DNA from: a phage
Reading direction: 5' to 3' (one strand)
DNA length: 64,000 nucleotides
Sequence record: PZ452579.1
Positions 21,257-46,138 of this stretch are shown here, in pieces. A program made the translations under genes and the position numbers. Positions within the stretch are counted from its first letter, which is position 1. Each line of letters begins with the position of its first letter. The notes beneath the pieces were generated by a model. It was given only the letters and a program-made list of their open reading frames with translations, was not told where the DNA came from and did no database searches.

Positions 21257-23968
21257 TCAAAAATCAAACATATCGAACAGAGATGCTTTCTTCTCGTAAT
21301 CGAGTTTCGCTGCTGATGTGAATCCTTCAAGCGGTTTAATAAATGTCTTCTCAAGGAGAACAGTGTAGTCCATCCAATGAAGTACATCATCTTTGATTAA
21401 ATCAGTGATTTCCGTACCAGAAGGCCATGCGATACATTTATCACCGAATGGGTTTCCTTCACGTAAAGGCAGAACATATACTTTTTCACCTTCTACAACT
21501 TGTGGAGCATCAATATTACCTTTGATAGCCCGGTTATATGTCAGAATTCCACGAATATGGAACGGGCATTTAGGTCCTGGATATCCACCTACATCATATT
21601 TAGCAATGTTATTCGCAGAAGATACCGACGCGATGCTAATATAATTCAATTGACGGAATTCTTTTTCAAACTCTTTAAAATATTCTTGTAATGATTCTTC
21701 ACCTTCTTGAAGCATACGACGAATACATTCTTTAAGAGCTTTCTGTACTGCTTTAGGAGTCGAAGATTTCTGAGTCTCTAGACCCATGATTTTGAGTTTA
21801 GGCTCAGCGTATCTGGTTCCTTCCATATCCCACACGTTTAATGCATAACGTTTCTTACCAGTCCAGAATCCACCAATACCTTTAGAACCGAGCGGAGGAC
21901 CAGCGATAGCTTCTCGGTCCATGAACATTAAGTGTTGTTTATTGTTCATGTATTCACACATTTCACGGAAACCTTTATCAATAGCTGGTTCCATACGTTC
22001 ACGTGCAAACTTATCTAAGAAGTCTACCCAATGGTTGGTATCACGGAATTTAGATTCACCAACCTTATCGATAATTTTATCAGCAGATACGTAAATAGAG
22101 TCTGTATCACCATAAAGAACGAAAGCTTCACCTTCTGTACCACAAACTTCATTCAGATATTCATTAACTTTACGTTCAATCCACTGTAAAGCCATTTGAC
22201 CAAATGTTGTGATTGCAGTAGCATTACGCAAATCATAATAACGGAACCAAACGTTGCCAAGTGCACCATAAAGTGAGTTGATAAGCAATTTACGGTTAAT
22301 CTGTGCAGTCATACCTGCAACTTCAGTACGTTGAGCTCTAAACAACATTTCATTAAGAGATTTAGCAGACAACTTTTTAATCTTTTCTTTAATCTCATCA
22401 CTGAAGTCGAAACGATAATCAACATCTAATGGTTCGTCAACAGAAAGATTAGGATTATGTAAGGCCTCTTTAATTATTTCACCATTACGTTGAGCCGCAA
22501 GCATATAACCTTTATGTTCTTTACGTTGATTAAAGACTTTAGTGATTTCAGTTGGAACAACACCGTCACGGTCTTTATAATACATCATGCCGTTAGGAGA
22601 ACAACTGTACACATCAGAAGGACGTTCAGCAACAGCGTTAATATAATCATGTAATGGAGCTACTTTAAACGTTCCTGCTATTGTTTCTGGGCTAATATTC
22701 ACTTGGCGAATGATGCTTGGATACAGAGATGTTAGGTCGAAGCTCATCACATATTTGTATCGATTTGGAATAGGTTCCTTAACAAAAGCACCCGGGTAAG
22801 GTTGAACTGGATGCGAACGACCTTGTGGAATCACCTTGTTTTGTTCTTTAAGGCTATTAAAAATAATAGCGTCCCACGTTTTAATTGGGCTAAACACAGA
22901 TTGAATCTGTATCTTAGCATAATAACCCATGTCCAAGCTCAAGTTAATGAACTGACGCTTAGCATCAATTTGCAATACACGATACACGTCGATAATGTTA
23001 TAAGAAATATATCGTTGGTGATTGCTTTCACGAAGCTTAGAAATAGGGCCATCATATTTCAGTTTACCAACGTTCAATTCAAATTCTGAAATGTAATCCA
23101 GAGAATACGACGGTTGATTGGTAAAAGAGAATTTTTTGTAAAGGTCGATGTAATCAAGAACAGAGATACCGAACAATGTAATGATTTCTCGTGAACCATA
23201 CATGTTTTCAATAACTTTAACACGAGTCTTGCGATGTGGTGACAACCGTTTTGCTGTGGATTCGCCAAAAATATTCTTGATTCGGTTATACACATATGGA
23301 ATATCAAATGACTCAACGTTCCATCCAGTCAAAATGACAGGAGTTTTCTGTTGCCAGAAGTTGAGATATTCCATCAACAATTCTTTTTCGTTATCGAACG
23401 GCATATAAATGATTTTATCGATAATTTCAGATGGAACTTCATCACCGCCTTGTTCTTGAAGCTTAGCAGCGATTTCAATAGACCATTCTTCTACATTACC
23501 ATATGGAGAATTCAATAGATCAAATACGTAGAACCTGTCGTCAATTGAGTCATAATGGGTGATAGCATCAATCGGATGTTTTGCTTGTGACGGCTCAGGG
23601 AACCCGTCCGGAGATGTTACTTCGATGTCGAAGTTAGCCACACGAATTTTTGTATGGTCGTATTTGATTTCATAGTTATAAGTGTCAGACAAATACGCCA
23701 ATTTGAAATCGTCCATGCCAAGTGCTTCAAGTCCGATATCTTCCATGCGTTTAATCCATTGTGAGGCATCACGCATATTAGCGAACAACTTACGAGTACA
23801 CGGCTTACCGTAGATATCGAAATATTTCGTAGCCTGACTTTCTGGACAATGAGCAAACAGTGATGGTTTATATTCTACTTCACGAGTACGTTCACGGCCG
23901 TTAGAATCGATGTAACGTTCAAAAATTGAATCACCGATCTGTTCAACCGTTAAGTAAAATTCTTTCAT
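21257..23968 (-). CDS. 43: DNA polymerase gp43 (family B)
   Basis: 903 aa; exonuclease and polymerase motifs including YGDTDS; T4 gp43 size and position. Confidence 0.95.
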   Translation of the reverse strand: MKEFYLTVEQIGDSIFERYIDSNGRERTREVEYKPSLFAHCPESQATKYFDIYGKPCTRKLFANMRDASQWIKRMEDIGLEALGMDDFKLAYLSDTYNYEIKYDHTKIRVANFDIEVTSPDGFPEPSQAKHPIDAITHYDSIDDRFYVFDLLNSPYGNVEEWSIEIAAKLQEQGGDEVPSEIIDKIIYMPFDNEKELLMEYLNFWQQKTPVILTGWNVESFDIPYVYNRIKNIFGESTAKRLSPHRKTRVKVIENMYGSREIITLFGISVLDYIDLYKKFSFTNQPSYSLDYISEFELNVGKLKYDGPISKLRESNHQRYISYNIIDVYRVLQIDAKRQFINLSLDMGYYAKIQIQSVFSPIKTWDAIIFNSLKEQNKVIPQGRSHPVQPYPGAFVKEPIPNRYKYVMSFDLTSLYPSIIRQVNISPETIAGTFKVAPLHDYINAVAERPSDVYSCSPNGMMYYKDRDGVVPTEITKVFNQRKEHKGYMLAAQRNGEIIKEALHNPNLSVDEPLDVDYRFDFSDEIKEKIKKLSAKSLNEMLFRAQRTEVAGMTAQINRKLLINSLYGALGNVWFRYYDLRNATAITTFGQMALQWIERKVNEYLNEVCGTEGEAFVLYGDTDSIYVSADKIIDKVGESKFRDTNHWVDFLDKFARERMEPAIDKGFREMCEYMNNKQHLMFMDREAIAGPPLGSKGIGGFWTGKKRYALNVWDMEGTRYAEPKLKIMGLETQKSSTPKAVQKALKECIRRMLQEGEESLQEYFKEFEKEFRQLNYISIASVSSANNIAKYDVGGYPGPKCPFHIRGILTYNRAIKGNIDAPQVVEGEKVYVLPLREGNPFGDKCIAWPSGTEITDLIKDDVLHWMDYTVLLEKTFIKPLEGFTSAAKLDYEKKASLFDMFDF

Positions 23969-24023
23969 TTAATTTCCTTTAGACGAGTTATTGTCTTTTG
24001 TTTGTTGATGAACTTATTATACT

Positions 24024-24046
24024 CCAAATGGGACCGAAGTCCCATT
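24024..24046 (-). terminator. C(UUCG)G hairpin between regA and 43
   Basis: AATGGGAC-CGAA-GTCCCATT 8-bp stem; immediately 3' of regA stop. Confidence 0.5.
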
Positions 24047-24049
24047 GCT

Positions 24050-24418
24050 TTAATTACCAATTGTATATTTTGCTTTCAAAGTCCAGTCATCTTTCTGTTT
24101 AAAAGAGATAACTCGGAAGTTATTAGTCAGGCTAAATAGATCTTCACGAGCAGAGTCTTCAATAACAATCAATCCCCAGTCTTCAAGCAACTGGGCAATC
24201 GAATCACGTCGCTGATAGTCTTCACCGTCAATATCAACCTGACGTCCATCCATACGCAACATTTCTTTAAAGTGGACGATATAGTACTTACCTTGCTTTT
24301 GGAGGATATGACAAGACTGGTAAAGGACTTTATCCTTGTTATTAGCGATGCCCATACGGGTCAAAGTCTCTTTGACTTTCAGAAAATCTTCAGGGTTCTT
24401 CAATTTAATTTCAATCAT
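24050..24418 (-). CDS. regA: Translational repressor RegA
   Basis: MIEIKLKNPEDFLKVKETLTRMGIANNKDKVLYQSCHILQK... near-identical to T4 RegA; start at homologous Met. Confidence 0.9.
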   Translation of the reverse strand: MIEIKLKNPEDFLKVKETLTRMGIANNKDKVLYQSCHILQKQGKYYIVHFKEMLRMDGRQVDIDGEDYQRRDSIAQLLEDWGLIVIEDSAREDLFSLTNNFRVISFKQKDDWTLKAKYTIGN

Positions 24419-39085: not shown

Positions 39086-39114
39086 GATAAACCCTTACCT
39101 TAAATAGATAAGGG

Positions 39115-39122
39115 TATTTATA
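39115..39122 (-). promoter_or_regulatory. Late promoter TATAAATA upstream of gene 49, followed by a 5' UTR hairpin
   Basis: Plus tatttata; hairpin CCCTTA...TAAGGG at 39092..39116 lies between promoter and the gene 49 start. Confidence 0.55.
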
Positions 39123-39755
39123 ATTTAGTAAACGTTATAAAAGTTACGATGAGAACGTTTAGCTTTGCGAAGCTGACGTTTAGTAGGACGAACTGTAAAT
39201 GGTTGTCCAGAGAAAAAATTCGGATCGGTTTTAATAAGCAAATACCAATCATGTTTGCCATTTTTTAATAAACGGTACAATAATTTAACTTGCATAATAA
39301 TCTCTTCCCATTTCCATATCAATTAATTCATTTATTGAAGGTTCATCATAACACGTTTCTTCGTCGTTGTAAACTGTTTCGACGTCTGGCTCGACTGTCT
39401 CCCATCGAGCCGAATACCATGGTTTAACCGCGGAGCTTATTGAGCTCTTCATAATCAACCCAGGATTCTAGCCCAGATGGCAAATCAGATTCAACATTCC
39501 ACAGAAGCTCTTCGATGGCTTGTAGGCGATTATATTCTTCAACAGTAATAGTAACCATTGTTTCAGGCTTTTTAACCATCATGTCATTCATCAGAATGTA
39601 CAGGTCTTCACAAACAGCTGGGTCGTCCCATGTCCATATTTCAGCATCTCTAACCAATGAAGTCGGAATCGAATTTAAAACTTCAAGCTTAGTAGGAGCG
39701 TCAGGGCCGAGAAGAGTTGCTACAAATTTATATGCTTTGGCGAAATCAATATTGT

Positions 39756-40019
39756 TCATTTAAAATATTCTCGCAGTTGGTCAAATCCACCAATGTGACT
39801 TCCGTCAGGAGCAAACACTTGAGGCATAGTCAATCCGACTTGTGATTCACGTCCAAGCTTAACCAGAAGCTCAGCAATTTTCTCATCATCAAAAACACCT
39901 TTTTCTGGCATAACATTAATGAATTCGAATGGCTGTTTCTTAACAGTCAGCAATCGTTTCGCATTATCACAGAAAACGCAACGGTGAATAGTAGAGTCAT
40001 ACCCGTACACTTTAAACAT
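39756..40019 (-). CDS. nrdC: Thioredoxin/glutaredoxin NrdC
   Basis: MFKVYGYDSTIHRCVFCDNAKRLLTVKKQPFEFINVMPEKG... near-identical to remembered T4 NrdC; start at homologous Met. Confidence 0.88.
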   Translation of the reverse strand: MFKVYGYDSTIHRCVFCDNAKRLLTVKKQPFEFINVMPEKGVFDDEKIAELLVKLGRESQVGLTMPQVFAPDGSHIGGFDQLREYFK

Positions 40020-40425
40020 TATTTTTCCTTTCATCGATTAAATATGCAACACCAAATACAATACATGTAATAAAACCTGTTATACAGATAGAAACCAACA
40101 ACACTGTACCAAAGAACCAAATCAGGTTATCTTTAGTAGTTTGTTTGATATCCATCTCACGAATTTCTATAGCTATCGTATCACCTTTATTCAGAAGCGT
40201 ATAAAACGACGGTGATACATGCCTGTCAAAAACACGACCTTGTTCATCTTTATAAACTGCAATAAATTCTAATTTAGAATATTTTCCTGTAGATTGACCT
40301 GAAATTAATTCCACCACCTCCACAGGAATTACTTTAGTTTCCATGTAAGTATTCTGGCTGTTCCAAATGAATGGAATGATGGCAAAAACTAAAGCTGCAA
40401 TAAAACAACGAAGGCTATATCTCAT
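40012..40425 (-). CDS. Membrane protein (two TM)
   Basis: 137-aa ORF with N- and C-terminal hydrophobic segments. Confidence 0.5.
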   Translation of the reverse strand: MRYSLRCFIAALVFAIIPFIWNSQNTYMETKVIPVEVVELISGQSTGKYSKLEFIAVYKDEQGRVFDRHVSPSFYTLLNKGDTIAIEIREMDIKQTTKDNLIWFFGTVLLVSICITGFITCIVFGVAYLIDERKNNV

Positions 40426-40730
40426 TATAATGTTCTCTCAAATTTGTGGAAGCATTTACGGCATTTCAATTTCAAGTTATCAGTGGTCCAGTTAACCAGT
40501 TGGACTTGGATAGTTCCACATTCCGGGCATGGATGTTTTGCTGCCGATTTGGCAGCATTTTCACGTCGTTCAACCATTTTCATGATTTCGTTCCATGCCG
40601 GAGGAACGAACTCTTCTTCACCGTGGATTTTATCTCGCTGAACAAATTCAATCTTTGAACTATCGTCAATAAACTTAACCAAGCGGTGATTAGTGCTCAT
40701 ATCAATATCCTCTAAAAGACGTAGTTTCAT
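40425..40730 (-). CDS. Zinc-ribbon protein
   Basis: 101 aa; CPECG...CRKC. Confidence 0.5.
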   Translation of the reverse strand: MKLRLLEDIDMSTNHRLVKFIDDSSKIEFVQRDKIHGEEEFVPPAWNEIMKMVERRENAAKSAAKHPCPECGTIQVQLVNWTTDNLKLKCRKCFHKFERTL

Positions 40731-41680
40731 TATAACACCTCAATGGCATTTCGTAAACCATCCGCTTTCGCATTCAGAGCTTTTAACGATTTAGTCTGTT
40801 CTGCAATCTGGGCTTCGACTTCTTTCAGACGAGATTTGAGATATTCGCGTTCTTCTCTTAAGTTATCAACTTTTTCTACTTTAGGTTCTTTAATAGGCTT
40901 AGGCTTAAACACATTAGGGTTCTTCAGTTTAATTTGAATTCGAGAACTGAATAACATTGAACCGTTATCTTCGATTTCGTCAAACATTTCAACAACATCC
41001 ATAGTCTGTAACATCATGCGAAGTTTATAAGACAACGAACGAACGGTTTTGTTGCGCTTATTAATTTCTTCGGCTTTCATGGTACCGAGATTACGTGAGT
41101 AGTAATAAGGAACCTGGATATCAATTGATAATGATGCGTTACCATTACCGGTTGGTTTGAATACTGCAGTAACCCAATCTTTAACATGAACTTTATTTGT
41201 ACGACCATCACCGCCTGTGAATAATTTACGAGAATGTTTAAAAAGCATATTCACTTGGTTATTGAATTCACAAGCAAATTTATCAGCAAATTTAGTTTCA
41301 GGAATGGTAGAGAACCAATCAGCCAAATGAGTCTTTTTAACATCATTAACAATAGTGAATTCAACCAAATCGGTTTTAGATGTCACAGATTTAATAAAGT
41401 TCGGCTTCATAAAGTTTTTGATGTTATCACGAGCCACAGTAGAAGATAATAAACGAGAACGTTTGAACCATTGAAGCAGTGTCCCTAATGAATGAGAATA
41501 CGCATTTTGAGTATCTTTACAGATATGATTTTCTTGACCTGTGTATGTACCAAAATCACGAAGAATACCACTTACTACATCTCGGTGTTGAACATCAAAT
41601 CCTAGTGCACCAGCAGCGCGCTGAGCATGAACGTTAGCGATAAGACCGGCAAAGTATTCAATGTAATGTGAACGTGTCAT
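40730..41680 (-). CDS. Hypothetical protein with C-terminal coiled coil
   Basis: 316-aa ORF, own promoter cassette upstream. Confidence 0.55.
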   Translation of the reverse strand: MTRSHYIEYFAGLIANVHAQRAAGALGFDVQHRDVVSGILRDFGTYTGQENHICKDTQNAYSHSLGTLLQWFKRSRLLSSTVARDNIKNFMKPNFIKSVTSKTDLVEFTIVNDVKKTHLADWFSTIPETKFADKFACEFNNQVNMLFKHSRKLFTGGDGRTNKVHVKDWVTAVFKPTGNGNASLSIDIQVPYYYSRNLGTMKAEEINKRNKTVRSLSYKLRMMLQTMDVVEMFDEIEDNGSMLFSSRIQIKLKNPNVFKPKPIKEPKVEKVDNLREEREYLKSRLKEVEAQIAEQTKSLKALNAKADGLRNAIEVL

Positions 41681-41708
41681 AATATTTTCCTCTCGTTAAG
41701 ATAGAAAG

Positions 41709-41738
41709 ATTATACTCCAACCATCCTTGGTTGTAAAC
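41709..41738 (-). promoter_or_regulatory. Early promoter with spacer hairpin (CCATCCTTGG family)
   Basis: Minus strand GTTTAC-AACCAAGGATGGTTGGAG-TATAAT; same palindrome at 42713..42730 and 63875..63890. Confidence 0.6.
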
Positions 41739-41742
41739 TGAT

Positions 41743-42678
41743 TTATGATTTTAATGCATTCATTGCGTTAAAAAGTTTAGAGTACTGCAACTGGAGCTTG
41801 GTAACTACTTGTTGAGCATCACGAAGCTTAGCTTGTGCTTTGTCAAGTTCAACAGACAGTTGGTCCATAGTGGCCTTGATTTGATTATAATAGTAATCTT
41901 CAGCAGGAAGAAGACCGTTAGAGATTTCCAATTTAGTCGACGGTGAAGTGTATATAGATGGAGCAGTAGAATATGCACCTAGAACTTCAGCATTGCCAAT
42001 TGGGGTTGCAGTAATTGATGCTTCGAACGTTGCATTTTCCTTTTTAAGATTTTGATAGTATTCAGAGTCTTTGTGCCACCATGGCGCAGGAACCTTTTTA
42101 CCAATAGATACACGAGCCTGGATAGCGATATGGCCCTTATTCTTGATAGGGTCGATAATATTAAGCTCACGAGAATAAATTGCTTTAATCTGGTGGATAT
42201 TATCACCTAAAACTTCCAACGCTTGGTGGAATACACGAGCAACGTTATCATTCTTAGGTTTATACGTAAGAGTGAACTCGTTCTCACTGATAACCATGAT
42301 TTCTAACTTATCGTAAGTATATTTCAAATGTTTCATGTTAATTGCTTGAGGACGAATACGAGAAGCAATGGCCATCAGATTGTTAAGGTTATTTCTGAAC
42401 TGTTTAGCAAAATATTGTCCGTAACCGCCAATACAAAAATTACGAAGTTTCTGCTTGGCTAATAAACGGCTGAACTCACCATTTTTAATGAACTCTTTAA
42501 CGGGTGTGTTAGTAACGCATTCAAATTGAGTAAACTTACGAGAAGTAATCCCATAATATGAACAGATTTCCTCAATCTCTTCAGGAGTCTTTACAGGCAT
42601 ACGGATGGGATTAGGTCCTGGGGTATATGCATTCGAGGTAAATTCTTTGATAAGTTCTCTACGTGTAATAGAAGCCAT
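41743..42678 (-). CDS. Hypothetical protein with C-terminal coiled coil
   Basis: 311-aa ORF. Confidence 0.55.
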   Translation of the reverse strand: MASITRRELIKEFTSNAYTPGPNPIRMPVKTPEEIEEICSYYGITSRKFTQFECVTNTPVKEFIKNGEFSRLLAKQKLRNFCIGGYGQYFAKQFRNNLNNLMAIASRIRPQAINMKHLKYTYDKLEIMVISENEFTLTYKPKNDNVARVFHQALEVLGDNIHQIKAIYSRELNIIDPIKNKGHIAIQARVSIGKKVPAPWWHKDSEYYQNLKKENATFEASITATPIGNAEVLGAYSTAPSIYTSPSTKLEISNGLLPAEDYYYNQIKATMDQLSVELDKAQAKLRDAQQVVTKLQLQYSKLFNAMNALKS

Positions 42679-42704
42679 TTTATATTCCTCATGTTGAAAA
42701 ATTT

Positions 42705-42733
42705 ATTATACTACAACCATCCTTGGTTGTACA
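42705..42733 (-). promoter_or_regulatory. Early promoter with spacer hairpin (CCATCCTTGG family)
   Basis: Minus strand TGTACA-ACCAAGGATGGTTG-TAGTATAAT. Confidence 0.55.
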
Positions 42734-43729
42734 TCATTCCTTAAGAAGTTTTACTACTTGAATAAGATTAGCTCGTTCTGTTTTATTTTTACCGTTTAAG
42801 CCTGCTAATCGTGAGATTTCATCGTCAGTCTGTTGAATAGTTACATTAAGTTCGTTAATCAAAGCTTCAAAGTATTTGATTTGCTCAGCATGTTTTGATT
42901 CAAATTTCTGAACCGGAATAACGTCTTGGTTCAGTTCATCAATAAGGTCTTTAAGAGCATCTTCTTGGTTGATATCATATTCAACTTCTTTTATTTCTTC
43001 AGCGAGCTCGTCTTTATATCTAACATCTTTTAGTCCTGGAGCTGGACCTAAAATCTCTTCTTTAAGAGTACAAACATATCCAATACGATATCCAATGCCG
43101 TCTCGCTTGATATCAACTTCGTCGATAAATCCACAATGTTTAAGCCCGGAGCCAATTAGGTCAAAATATCCTTGACGACGTCCTTCAAACGTTACACGAA
43201 CTACTAAGACGGTTTTGCCACCGACCTTTTGAAGCTCACATTTATAAAAGTCTGTTGAACCTGAATAACGTGGATGAGTTTTAAAGTTCATCTGACGATC
43301 TAGGCCCATTTGTAAGCGTGCTGATACGGCCAGAAAACGTGTTTGGTTCTCGTTAAGATGAGCAACAATCCATTTCAAAGGCATTTTACCATGTTCACGA
43401 CCGAACAAATCAGTACGTCCTAAATTACGCAGGATATTGTTAGAGTTAATCATCGACAGAACGTTAAGTTTATTCAGCGCGCTGAAGATTCCATCGGCCA
43501 TTGATTTTCCGTAACCTTTACATGCTTTAATAAGCGCTCGCGGTAGATTAGTATAGATTTCAGACGGCATATGAAAATCAAATTTACTAACCAGTAATTG
43601 ATGAACTTGGATAGCAATTTGTTCATAATTAAGTGCTCTGCGATCATTATGGTCTTTAAACCACACTTTAATCTGTGAAGCACATAAACCGTTAATTTCA
43701 TGTTTTACCGCATCAGATGTAATGCTCAT
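42734..43729 (-). CDS. Hypothetical protein with C-terminal coiled coil
   Basis: 331-aa ORF. Confidence 0.55.
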   Translation of the reverse strand: MSITSDAVKHEINGLCASQIKVWFKDHNDRRALNYEQIAIQVHQLLVSKFDFHMPSEIYTNLPRALIKACKGYGKSMADGIFSALNKLNVLSMINSNNILRNLGRTDLFGREHGKMPLKWIVAHLNENQTRFLAVSARLQMGLDRQMNFKTHPRYSGSTDFYKCELQKVGGKTVLVVRVTFEGRRQGYFDLIGSGLKHCGFIDEVDIKRDGIGYRIGYVCTLKEEILGPAPGLKDVRYKDELAEEIKEVEYDINQEDALKDLIDELNQDVIPVQKFESKHAEQIKYFEALINELNVTIQQTDDEISRLAGLNGKNKTERANLIQVVKLLKE

Positions 43730-43791
43730 AACTATTTCCTCAGATTGAATTGGAACTCAAAACCATTATAACCCGTCCTTGGGTAAAGCGT

Positions 43792-44319
43792 TTATGCGTG
43801 AACCGTCTTTAAACGTTCTTCAAATTTCCGAAGAGTACTAATACGTTCTGCTTTCTGTTTTGTATAGTTTGCAATACGTTCTGAAGTGAGAGCGTATCGT
43901 TCGTTTACTGTTTCTTTCATGAAGTCAGGGATTTCACGAGAAGCTTTAATTTCATCAAACTTATCGAGTACTGCCTGGTCTTCAGCGATTAAATTTTCGT
44001 ACATCTCGATATCTTTCTTAATGAAGTCGATATCTTCCTGGGTTACTTTGGATAAACGAGATGCTTTATCCTTTTTGTACTGCTCGTTAGTTTCGCGAGA
44101 CCAGAATAACGTACGTTTTTTGTTAGTGTTTTTGTAGACTTCCACAATTCCAACTGAATCGATGATAACAATCCAATTCCAGCGAGATTTGAAAATCTGA
44201 CCTCCGTCCACGGTAATCTCGTTACCATAAGCAACGTCGTTAAAGAACTTGCTTTGTGCTTCAGATTTAAATTTACCGTCGTTATAATTTACCAGGTTGA
44301 AAATATCTTTAGCGTTCAT
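43792..44319 (-). CDS. Hypothetical protein
   Basis: 175-aa ORF. Confidence 0.5.
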   Translation of the reverse strand: MNAKDIFNLVNYNDGKFKSEAQSKFFNDVAYGNEITVDGGQIFKSRWNWIVIIDSVGIVEVYKNTNKKRTLFWSRETNEQYKKDKASRLSKVTQEDIDFIKKDIEMYENLIAEDQAVLDKFDEIKASREIPDFMKETVNERYALTSERIANYTKQKAERISTLRKFEERLKTVHA

Positions 44320-44922
44320 GTTTTACCTCCAGTAGTTGATAGGTCTATAATAACATAACCATAGACCTTGTAAACAACTAAAAGAAACTTTTTTCGGTAT
44401 TTTTTCCACTGAACCAAACCGACTTCGGTATTTTCTGTAATTTTTCAGATTTAAGTTTCTCTTCCTGTTCTTTCTTATATACACCCTTGTCGTACTGGAG
44501 CATCTCTATGGCATTCTTTTGCAAACGATCTAAGGTAATTAAGGCTTTAGTTTTTCCTTTCAAGGAAGAGTCCTGGCGAACCTCCTCGCTATATTGCATC
44601 GTAGAACTAACCATACGATGAGCATAGAGTTCGACTGCGGCTTTAATTTTTTGCATAAAATCCATAACATATCCTCTTTGATTTGTACATCATTATTTTT
44701 AAATATTTCTATGCCCTCAGTAGGTTCCTGGTGTCCTTCTTTGAGGTAAGCCATATGATTATTCATCTTTATGGCTTTTGTTACCTCAGAACTTCCTATA
44801 AGCTTATTTCAGTAAAGTAACTTCCGAGATTTCTTCCCAACCATCTTTATCAGTTGAAATAAAATCTGCTACATAAAGAGCCGTACGTAATGATACATTG
44901 CGAAGACGAGATACGTTAGCCT

Positions 44923-45774
44923 TCATCCAGGACAATGCTTTATACGTTTCTGCATCATGTCAGTAGATAATATTACATCTTCAACTCGAACCATAATCTC
45001 TTCATTAGAGTGTACTCCAAGGTCCAAATACACTGAACGAGATACTAAAGCTTGAAGGTGGGGAGCAAGTTTCGAACCGCGTTCTAACTCTTTATCGATA
45101 TCAACGTTTGTAATGAAAACAATAGTACCTTCAAACTCAAATTCTTTATCAATACCCTTATCATCGAGATAAGATGACGCAGTGCTCCAACAAACTTTGC
45201 GTTTATCTCCGGTATCTAATGCTGCTTTAAGAAGGTTCAAGATGTCCATATCTGAGAATACGTCAACGTCGTCGATTAAGAGAACGCTGTCTGCATCACG
45301 GTTGAGCCAAAGTTGTTCGTAAAGGCCAATACCAGAGATTTTACCATTAATACTTTTGTATTTGATGAAACCATTATCATTAGCATTATTAAGTGCTTTA
45401 TCCAGAGAATACGTCTTACCAATACCGGCTGCACCTGAAATAATGAGTGAACGAATTTTGCCATCGATAATACCATTCGTCATCATGTTCATTACTTTAA
45501 AGCGTTTGTTGATACGAGTTTTCATATCTTCAGTGCTTTCAACAACTGCAACTGGTGATGTCTCAACTCCTTCCATTACGATGTCTGATTTGAAGACCCA
45601 TACTCCACGTTCAGAACCATCAATCATAACGAAAATTTTACCGTCACCTAAGTGGGAACATTCAGGATTAAGCTTTGCCGGGAACCATGTCTTTGTGGCA
45701 ACATAAGAACCAGAGATTTCGTTATTACGATAGATACCTTTTTTGATTTGAACGTTGAACATTTTATTCTCCAA
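44923..45774 (-). CDS. P-loop ATPase
   Basis: 283 aa; Walker A SGAAGIGKTYS and Walker B-like LLIDDVD. Confidence 0.6.
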   Translation of the reverse strand: MENKMFNVQIKKGIYRNNEISGSYVATKTWFPAKLNPECSHLGDGKIFVMIDGSERGVWVFKSDIVMEGVETSPVAVVESTEDMKTRINKRFKVMNMMTNGIIDGKIRSLIISGAAGIGKTYSLDKALNNANDNGFIKYKSINGKISGIGLYEQLWLNRDADSVLLIDDVDVFSDMDILNLLKAALDTGDKRKVCWSTASSYLDDKGIDKEFEFEGTIVFITNVDIDKELERGSKLAPHLQALVSRSVYLDLGVHSNEEIMVRVEDVILSTDMMQKRIKHCPG

Positions 45775-45832
45775 ATTTACTCATTTCGTTTCGATAGGTC
45801 TATAATAACATGTTTAAAGCAAAAGTAAACAA

Positions 45833-46051
45833 TTATTTGCGACGAGATTTTTTGGTAAGAGGTTGAAAGAACACTGCTTTACCAGCAGGAGTCAAAGTGA
45901 CTCGTAATGCATTACCGATTCCCAAGGATGCTTTAACAAGACCTTTAGATTTCAGTTCACCGAATGCTTGACGTTGGTCTGCATCACGAGTGTTAACCAT
46001 AAGACCTTTATCACCAGCTTCACGAATCATTTCTAACATTTTGGTTTTCAT
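45833..46051 (-). CDS. Small basic protein
   Basis: 72-aa ORF. Confidence 0.45.
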   Translation of the reverse strand: MKTKMLEMIREAGDKGLMVNTRDADQRQAFGELKSKGLVKASLGIGNALRVTLTPAGKAVFFQPLTKKSRRK

Positions 46052-46138
46052 TTTGTTTTCTCCTCTTGTTTTGATAGGTCTATAATAACATATCCTAAAA
46101 GCATGTACACTACTTTTTAAAAATATTTTGACCCCCTA

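Follow-up and report, generated by a model that had tools for sequence, protein, structure and literature searches.

Three neighboring nrdC-island genes of an RB69-like phage as probable remote paralogs and candidate inhibitors of host defense

A 64,000-nucleotide stretch of phage DNA (sequence record PZ452579.1), referred to here as the window, contains three consecutive minus-strand open reading frames (ORFs) of 316, 311, and 331 amino acids (aa) in the interval 40730-43729. The source of the window is an RB69-like (Mosigvirus) T4-type phage: a 6.1-kb stretch shares 96-97% DNA identity with RB69-like Mosigvirus phages. The initial annotation of this DNA had described three adjacent ORFs of similar size in a hyperplastic region. 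Their exact coordinates were verified, the C-terminal peptides quoted for them were found in the three proteins, and the genes lie within nrdC-tk, a region of T4-type phages known to be hyperplastic. On one side of the trio are nrdD, gene 49, and nrdC; on the other are two ORFs of 175 and 95 aa and an ORF with a P-loop. The three genes are as follows.

40730-41680, minus strand: nrdC.3 ortholog, 316 aa (phrog_1435; precomputed Pfam family PF26897; RB69 annotation)
41743-42678, minus strand: nrdC.5 ortholog, 311 aa (Pfam DUF7235, PF23882; phrog_2351; RB69 annotation)
42734-43729, minus strand: nrdC.6 ortholog, 331 aa (phrog_2257; precomputed Pfam family PF26899; RB69 annotation)

The three ORFs are orthologs, of the Mosigvirus (RB69) type, of three accessory genes of T4: nrdC.3, nrdC.5, and nrdC.6. 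The earlier statement that no T4 homolog was recognized does not hold, as follows from the RB69 annotation, from the PHROG and Pfam families, and from direct comparison with T4. The genes have been known since the genomes of T4 and RB69 were annotated; in RB69 they carry the labels nrdC.3, nrdC.5, and nrdC.6, “similar to T4”. The NrdC.3 ORF matches the phrog_1435 profile over its full length (residues 1-316, E=1.3e-102), and PF26897 is precomputed on all homologs; the gene lies directly upstream of nrdC.2, with its stop codon overlapping the start of the nrdC.2 ortholog at 40730. The NrdC.5 ORF scores 382.7 bits against DUF7235 (Pfam gathering cut-off 30), covering model positions 1-307 of 307, and also matches phrog_2351 over its full length; its gene and T4 nrdC.5 are found at the same place in the nrdC island. 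The NrdC.6 ORF matches phrog_2257 over its full length (E=5.9e-126), and its gene adjoins the NrdC.8 ortholog. Family scans assigned T4 NrdC.3, NrdC.5, and NrdC.6 to the same families as their window counterparts; the window proteins resemble T4 NrdC.3 and NrdC.4 (both phrog_1435) and NrdC.6 (phrog_2257) in the full-length family match and in synteny. The divergence from T4 is very uneven. NrdC.8 next door is 83% identical and NrdC.3 57%, while the identity drops to 30% for NrdC.6 (T4/T6) and to only 23% for NrdC.5 (over 307 aa, E=2e-8). The T4 island also carries a fourth gene of similar size, nrdC.4, whereas Mosigvirus has no nrdC.4 and has nrdC.7 relocated beside nrdC.

In many deposited genomes (records matching window 40000-46100) the orthologs of nrdC.2 to nrdC.11 are labeled “thioredoxin”. 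This label was rejected for these genes: no match to a thioredoxin-fold family was found among eight scanned proteins (nrdC.2,.3,.5,.6,.7,.8,.9, and.10), and it looks like a name that has spread from the gene symbol nrdC.x.

The N-terminal 250 residues of the three proteins had been described as unrelated, which is true at the level of BLASTP only (best E-values among the three window proteins 0.15-2.8). The first hint of relatedness came through T4 NrdC.4, which matches window NrdC.3 with E=9e-5 and aligns with T4 NrdC.3 over 271 residues; NrdC.3 and NrdC.4 are already united in one PHROGs family, phrog_1435. In addition, phrog_26858 matches most of the length of NrdC.4 and both NrdC.5 alleles at the tail. 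Alignments were built for each family from T4, T6, T2, RB69-like phages, WG01 (Dhakavirus), VR26 (Gaprivervirus), a Yersinia phage, and loci from the IMG/VR database, the scan of which yielded 7 loci only, and the family profiles were compared by hhalign. This pairwise comparison, proposed as a check in the initial annotation, indicates relatedness that includes the heads (E=1e-11 to 2e-5, and 1e-4 for NrdC.6 through a merged profile), as listed below.

NrdC.3 against NrdC.4, full length: probability 97%, E=1e-11, 228 columns
NrdC.4 against NrdC.5, full length: probability 88%, E=3e-6, 239 columns
NrdC.3 against NrdC.5, full length: probability 76%, E=2e-5, 237 columns
NrdC.3 against NrdC.4, without the last 55 residues: probability 98%, E=3e-12, 210 columns
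NrdC.4 against NrdC.5, without the last 55 residues: probability 64%, E=6e-5, 170 columns
Merged NrdC.3/4/5 against NrdC.6: probability 58%, E=1e-4, 74 columns

The signal persists when the tail is removed, and therefore the similarity of the heads is not a coiled-coil artefact. The observed scores (43, 50, and 40) lie 11-16 standard deviations above column-shuffled nulls (z=13-16 within NrdC.3/4/5 and 10.8 for the merged profile against NrdC.6), 40 shuffled target alignments scoring 14 +/- 2.3 with a maximum of 20. Reversed alignments used as a control score 14-20, and control comparisons with the neighboring NrdC.10 and NrdC.11 families gave E=0.2-0.8. NrdC.6 matches each single family weakly (pairwise hhalign, E=0.006-0.06); its match to the merged profile falls in the head core (columns 69-161 against 74-147) and, at a relaxed threshold, runs collinearly from the N-terminus to the last residue. 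Two motifs are shared by the heads, FK-x-SRLLS...A...L-x-NF (with F or L at the first position) and N-x3-LLK-x-ASRL-x2-GD, and in the NrdC.3/NrdC.4 alignment the columns F72, K73, S75, R76, L78, S79, and F90 are invariant. The head core motifs map to the following positions.

41411-41467, minus strand: NrdC.3 head core motif FKRSRLLSSTVARDNIKNF, aligned by hhalign to the NrdC.5 and NrdC.6 equivalents
42436-42492, minus strand: NrdC.5 head core motif FIKNGEFSRLLAKQKLRNF, aligned by hhalign with the NrdC.4 motif KTFKESRLLSYLVNRDILGNF and invariant within Mosigvirus
43421-43477, minus strand: NrdC.6 head core motif LNKLNVLSMINSNNILRNL, within the region of the merged-profile match

From these comparisons, NrdC.3, NrdC.4, and NrdC.5 are very probably remote paralogs along their entire length, and NrdC.6 probably belongs with them. 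Word-indexed homolog searches returned close relatives only, an exhaustive HMMER search of 1.84 billion proteins with the NrdC.6 profile gave six representatives and no bridge to the other families, and the NCBIfam scan contained nothing relevant. A statement that the four nrdC.x genes form one paralog family was not found in the literature searched.

Coiled coils had been predicted at the C-termini, and this prediction holds. The C-terminal 45-55 residues of each protein show significant heptad periodicity in a register search against shuffled sequences, with hydrophobic occupancy of the a and d positions of 0.85 in NrdC.3, 1.00 in NrdC.5, and 0.75 in NrdC.6, compared with 0.55-0.64 in shuffled sequences (P=0.0025, <0.0005, and 0.0035, respectively), and the tails are helical in AlphaFold models.

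40733-40867, minus strand: NrdC.3 heptad-repeat helix, residues ~272-316, ending in GLRNAIEVL (a/d occupancy 0.85; nearly invariant across genera)
41746-41901, minus strand: NrdC.5 heptad-repeat helix, residues ~260-311, ending in KLFNAMNALKS (AlphaFold2 helix 260-310; a/d occupancy 1.00)
42737-42964, minus strand: NrdC.6 helical region, residues ~256-331, broken at GLNGKNK and ending in NLIQVVKLLKE (AlphaFold2 helices 256-268, 273-294, 302-308, and 316-330, with heptads; the occupancy of 0.75 refers to the first part of the region)

The four families have a terminal motif in common, L-x-x-[A/I/V]-[I/L/M/V]-x-x-L-[K/N], which occurs in variants: GLRNAIEVL(K) in NrdC.3, RLEQALELLK in NrdC.4, KLNNALNALN, KLQAAIKALK, and KLFNAMNALKS in NrdC.5, and KLIKIVDLLKS and NLIQVVKLLKE in NrdC.6. 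A looser pattern, L-x-x-[AIVL]-[ILMV]-x-x-L-[KN] with an optional further residue, ends 3 of the 174 window ORFs of at least 60 aa, namely NrdC.5, NrdC.6, and one unrelated ORF; the window allele of NrdC.3 lacks the final K. When tails alone were compared by profile, NrdC.3 and NrdC.5 matched in exact end-to-end register (E=2e-4) and the other pairs gave 0.009-0.09, so that the similarity of tails between families is weaker than that of heads. Within orthologous groups the tail is the better conserved part. Tail and head identities between the window and T4/T6 are 67 and 55%, 39 and 24%, and 60 and 30% in the three groups, and a fourth pair of within-group values is 66 and 43%; the linker between head and tail is the most variable part, with insertions and deletions.

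The formula of a variable head and a constant tail thus has to be revised. With the tail taken as conserved, it describes evolution within each orthologous group and not the relation between the three genes; these do seem to form a family, though not one with unrelated heads, and the profile comparisons argue for whole-length divergence of tandem paralogs rather than for different heads grafted on one tail. A shared C-terminal module is retained in the sense of one terminal motif occurring in variants and of tails more conserved than heads within groups, but the tails of the paralogs have diverged and are not constant (tail-only E-values 2e-4 to 0.09). Clear homology to a T4 nrdC.x protein, which by the initial annotation would have spoken against the proposed family if those T4 proteins were unrelated and had no C-terminal module in common, was found for each ORF, but the T4 proteins are themselves interrelated and share the C-terminal module.

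Structure prediction, also proposed earlier, supported the C-terminal helices and left the fold unassigned. The alignments available for AlphaFold2, composed of window sequences and close relatives, were shallow (10 sequences for NrdC.5 and 5 for NrdC.6), and both models are poor, with predicted local distance difference test (pLDDT) scores of 39.8 and 47.3, respectively. As the models are too poor for fold assignment, the secondary structure alone was used. The order of elements is equal in both: helices come first, followed by two or three beta-strands, a helix, and one further strand, after which an unstructured linker leads to a long C-terminal helix, the best-scoring part of the NrdC.5 model. 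A Foldseek search of BFVD with the NrdC.5 model retrieved its own family only; the NrdC.6 model matched only generic designed alpha/beta proteins in PDB (TM score at most 0.3), and sequence profiles of PDB gave no match at E <= 0.1. In BFVD, the NrdC.6 model retrieved its own family and, at E=1e-4 to 2e-2, phage proteins of ~300 aa from Acinetobacter phages 133 and Acj61, Enterobacter phage IME523, and Serratia phage CBH8. By its length, the phage 133 match corresponds to Acj133p108 (302 aa). This protein is encoded at 23264-24172 of the Acinetobacter phage 133 locus (L017), a syntenic position between gene 49 and an nrdC.11-like gene, and has the same layout of a head, a Pro-rich linker, and a heptad tail as NrdC.3-6. 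Its single sequence gave only weak E-values of 0.008-0.016 in hhalign; Acj133p108 may be a distant family member and is regarded as a lead.

Each of the three ORFs had been credited with its own promoter cassette. Such cassettes are present, near-identical and of the early type before nrdC.3 and nrdC.5, and of a different, MotA-box-like type before nrdC.6. The 30-nt element GTTTACAACCAAGGATGGTTGGAGTATAAT occurs before nrdC.3 with 0 mismatches and before nrdC.5 with 3 mismatches (0 expected by chance). It fits the early-promoter consensus of T4 and PST, TTTACW-N17-TAYWAT, with a stem-loop inside the spacer.

41709-41738, minus strand: early-promoter/stem-loop (PeSL-type) cassette of nrdC.3, GTTTAC-N17-TATAAT with an AACCA-AGGA-TGGTT spacer hairpin (promoter scan 11/12; hairpin energy -6.9 kcal/mol)
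42705-42734, minus strand: early-promoter/stem-loop cassette of nrdC.5, TGTAC-AACCAAGGATGGTT-GTAG-TATAAT (promoter scan and pattern search; hairpin energy -9.1 kcal/mol, z=-3.3)
43765-43791, minus strand: MotA-box-like middle-promoter/stem-loop cassette of nrdC.6, aaaCGCTTTA-N13-TATAAT around CCCAAGGACGGG (read from sequence)

The element before nrdC.6 differs in its promoter part (GCTTTA-N13-TATAAT) and has the same CCAAGGA core as the other two; by the published MotA-box consensus it is a putative MotA-box middle promoter. A cassette of this type also precedes nrdC.7 in T4 and T6 and nrdC.6 in WG01 and VR26. T4 and T6 lack separate cassettes for nrdC.5 and nrdC.6, and therefore the arrangement of one cassette per gene is a trait of this lineage and not of the family. 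PeSL and PmSL promoter-stem-loop cassettes have been described in T4-type phages (Arbiol 2010, PMC2839356; Comeau 2014, PMC4122927), and the early-promoter consensus TTTACW-N17-TAYWAT was reported for PeSL cassettes (Comeau 2014, PMC4122927). The window elements resemble them in combining this promoter with a stem-loop and in recurring between the accessory genes in a hyperplastic region; the known cassettes also exist in a Mot-box version, as before window nrdC.6. In the window the hairpin (NCC-AAGGA-GGN) sits within the promoter spacer. As a separate observation, a loose T4 early-promoter-like motif, T[TG]TAC[ATC]-N16-18-TA[CT][AT]AT, has 16 matches on the minus strand of the whole window and a single one on the plus strand, a bias that fits a leftward block of early genes.

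Codon comparison with two other Mosigvirus loci gave ratios of nonsynonymous to synonymous substitution rates (dN/dS) of 0.10-0.17 for the heads and 0-0.18 for the tails; the three ORFs are real protein-coding genes under purifying selection. By gene, the ratios are 0.10-0.17 for nrdC.3, 0.12-0.15 for nrdC.5, and 0.10-0.12 for nrdC.6. Within Mosigvirus, no nonsynonymous changes were seen in the tails of NrdC.3 (one comparison) and NrdC.6 (both comparisons). The presence of the genes across related phages, which the initial annotation had suggested surveying, proved variable: nrdC.4 is absent from Mosigvirus, and deletions, a chimera, and a frameshift were found elsewhere. NrdC.5 of the window type is confined to 133 records of the phage collection, all Mosigvirus-like and at least 84% identical to one another, whereas relatives of NrdC.6, NrdC.3, and NrdC.4 occur in 742, 654, and 554 records, respectively, those of NrdC.4 never in Mosigvirus. 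Among 1.84 billion proteins the NrdC.6 family comprises six representatives at 50% identity.

Natural remodeling takes several forms. Salmonella phage Manna (locus L015, 5215-6252) has lost nrdC.5 and encodes an in-frame chimera, Manna_094, in which residues 1-268 of NrdC.6 are joined at a shared “DEI” to residues 251-333 of NrdC.4. In phage ACG-C40 (L018, 4305-4713) a deletion reaching from early nrdC.5 to the nrdC.3 tail has kept the first ~71 codons of nrdC.5 together with the nrdC.3 tail, and in phage Pinarejo (L019, 4501-4635) only an unannotated tail remnant of nrdC.6 is left. Unlike the intact window gene, the T4 reference nrdC.6 (275 aa; L002, T4 NC_000866, 9990-10250) has lost its tail by a frameshift within it; the ending ...ISIQQYDDEIFRLSGLSSKAKSEREKLIKIVDLLKS is intact in another frame, and T6-type phages encode the full 295-aa protein. 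In view of these deletions, the chimera, and the frameshift, the genes are dispensable and often remodeled, as expected in the hyperplastic nrdC-tk region.

An experimentally assigned function is available for one member of the family. An evolved T4 clone from which nrdC.5 had been lost was unable to plate on cells with the SIR2 NADase defense Dsr1, and T4 nrdC.5 provided in trans restored plating on Dsr1-carrying cells (Srikant et al. 2022, PMC9391042). Among neighboring genes, inhibition of OLD is assigned to gp49.2 (PMC13096335), that of Septu to nrdC.1, and that of Druantia III to bas37_0203 (preprint 10.1101/2025.11.20.689424); by position and size, bas37_0203 is the NrdC.8 ortholog of phage Bas37/KarlGJung. 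Window NrdC.5 resembles T4 NrdC.5 in the end-to-end match to DUF7235, in island position, in the layout of head, linker, and heptad tail, and in the common ending ...KLxxA[LM]NAL[NK]; it differs in that the window allele is 23% identical and confined to Mosigvirus (133 records), and Dsr1 neutralization is known for the T4 member alone.

The best-supported reading is that NrdC.3, NrdC.5, and NrdC.6 may be early-expressed inhibitors of host defense proteins. We infer this role for all three at close to even odds, because the genes have early or middle promoters, are dispensable, diverge very fast between genera under purifying selection within the genus, and have one family member with a proven counter-defense activity. 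DSAD1 is a small phage inhibitor of the NADase defense DSR2. The likeness proposed here, that of an early phage protein neutralizing a SIR2-family defense protein, would be a functional analogy only; NrdC.3-6 differ in their larger size and in their heptad tail.

Added to the identity, paralogy, architecture, purifying selection, and dispensability described above, this reading gives a composite explanation (orthologs of known genes, one paralog family, oligomeric inhibitors of defense proteins) to which we assign a rough probability of 0.6. According to it, Mosigvirus nrdC.3, nrdC.5, and nrdC.6 together with T4 nrdC.4 would constitute one tandem, fast-diverging paralog family, whose members consist of a head of ~220-260 residues with two motifs, a variable and probably disordered linker, and a heptad-repeat helix of 45-55 residues. 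In the NrdC.5 and NrdC.6 models the head is predicted to begin with helices followed by a small beta-beta-alpha-beta unit. In this phage a separate promoter/stem-loop cassette would drive early or middle transcription of each gene, the tail would assemble the protein into a dimer or trimer, and the diverged head would directly bind and neutralize a host anti-phage defense protein, every paralog or allele possibly being tuned to a different target.

Several points weigh against this explanation. Confidence in both models is low (pLDDT 40 and 47), and their common order of elements is not taken as evidence of a shared fold; the link of NrdC.6 to the family hangs on a single profile match with a probability of 58%; and oligomerization through the tail is a prediction from its sequence. 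Diversifying selection on the heads was looked for within Mosigvirus and not found, the selection there being purifying (dN/dS 0.10-0.17). Among NrdC.3-6 of all phages, a demonstrated function is limited to T4 NrdC.5, and with only 23% identity between window NrdC.5 and this tested protein the Dsr1 activity is not transferable. The stronger claim that NrdC.3-6 are a single, rapidly diversifying family of coiled-coil-oligomerized inhibitors, each disarming a different defense protein (Dsr1 in the case of T4 NrdC.5), is doubtful. If it were true, the tandem array would be the phage counterpart of a bacterial defense island, produced by duplication and divergence of one scaffold, and T4-like phages of Acinetobacter, Enterobacter, and Serratia may hold more distant members at the same locus.

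The genes could also be true paralogs with a role other than counter-defense, for instance in early host takeover (host metabolism, transcription, or nucleotide supply), the Dsr1 effect of NrdC.5 then being indirect. They adjoin the nucleotide-metabolism genes nrdC, nrdD, and tk, purifying selection within the genus suits a housekeeping-like accessory role, and the mechanism is unexplained even for T4 NrdC.5. However, four neighboring or family genes have experimentally assigned anti-defense activity, natural isolates show repeated deletions of the genes, and their divergence between genera is extreme (23-30% identity, compared with 83% for the adjacent NrdC.8), which makes this role unlikely. 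A different division of labor, with the heptad tails as the target-binding element, or as the site by which all members dock to the same partner, and the heads as variable effectors, appears still less probable. It would account for the tail being the most conserved part within each orthologous group, for the zero nonsynonymous tail changes within Mosigvirus (NrdC.3 in one comparison, NrdC.6 in both), and for the variants of one terminal motif common to the four families, but the strong differences between the tails of paralogs speak against a single shared partner, and sequence alone does not discriminate between tail roles. Finally, it is very improbable that three unrelated head domains each gained a similar C-terminal coiled coil by shuffling or convergence, since, despite the lack of BLASTP similarity, the separate PHROG and Pfam families, and the exchangeability of tails seen in Manna_094 (NrdC.6 head, NrdC.4 tail), profile comparisons restricted to the heads show significant similarity of NrdC.4 to both NrdC.3 and NrdC.5, the match of NrdC.6 is located in the head, the alignments are collinear along the whole length with scores 11-16 standard deviations over column-shuffled nulls, and tail-only similarity between families is below head similarity.

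The finding is ordinary insofar as the genes are long annotated and one family member has a published anti-defense role. What is modestly new is that four nrdC.x genes of ~300 residues probably represent one paralog family with a shared scaffold of head, linker, and heptad tail. This paralogy turns three “hypothetical proteins” into concrete counter-defense candidates, suggests tail-mediated oligomerization as a common design, and gives a reason to try NrdC.3, NrdC.4, and NrdC.6 against panels of defense systems.

Several observations concern other genes of the island. The 175-aa ORF directly upstream of the trio (43792-44319, minus strand) is the NrdC.8 ortholog, 83% identical to T4 and the counterpart of bas37_0203. 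The nrdC.10 ortholog (44923-45774, minus strand) is P-loop nucleoside triphosphatase-like, with weak matches to AAA_22 and AAA_16. Relative to RB69 and T4 it is frameshifted after ...MMQKR (3' end, window 44660-45010, minus strand), and a different frame encodes its conserved C-terminal ~50 residues (AETYKALSWMKANVSRLRNVSL...); the frameshift reflects either truncation of this allele or an error in sequencing. The gene nrdC.7, encoding a predicted membrane protein (40012-40425, minus strand), has nrdC and nrdC.2 as its neighbors in the window and in RB69, but nrdC.6 and nrdC.8 in T4. A Mot-box/stem-loop cassette (43765-43791, minus strand) precedes nrdC.6 in the window and nrdC.7 in T4, which suggests a rearrangement that had its breakpoint at this cassette. 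The interval between gene 49 and nrdC (window 39086-39756) is ~670 bp long and contains three small ORFs (65, 57, and 111 aa), whereas in RB69 it spans ~1.3 kb with six ORFs, including pin, and represents another variable patch of the island.

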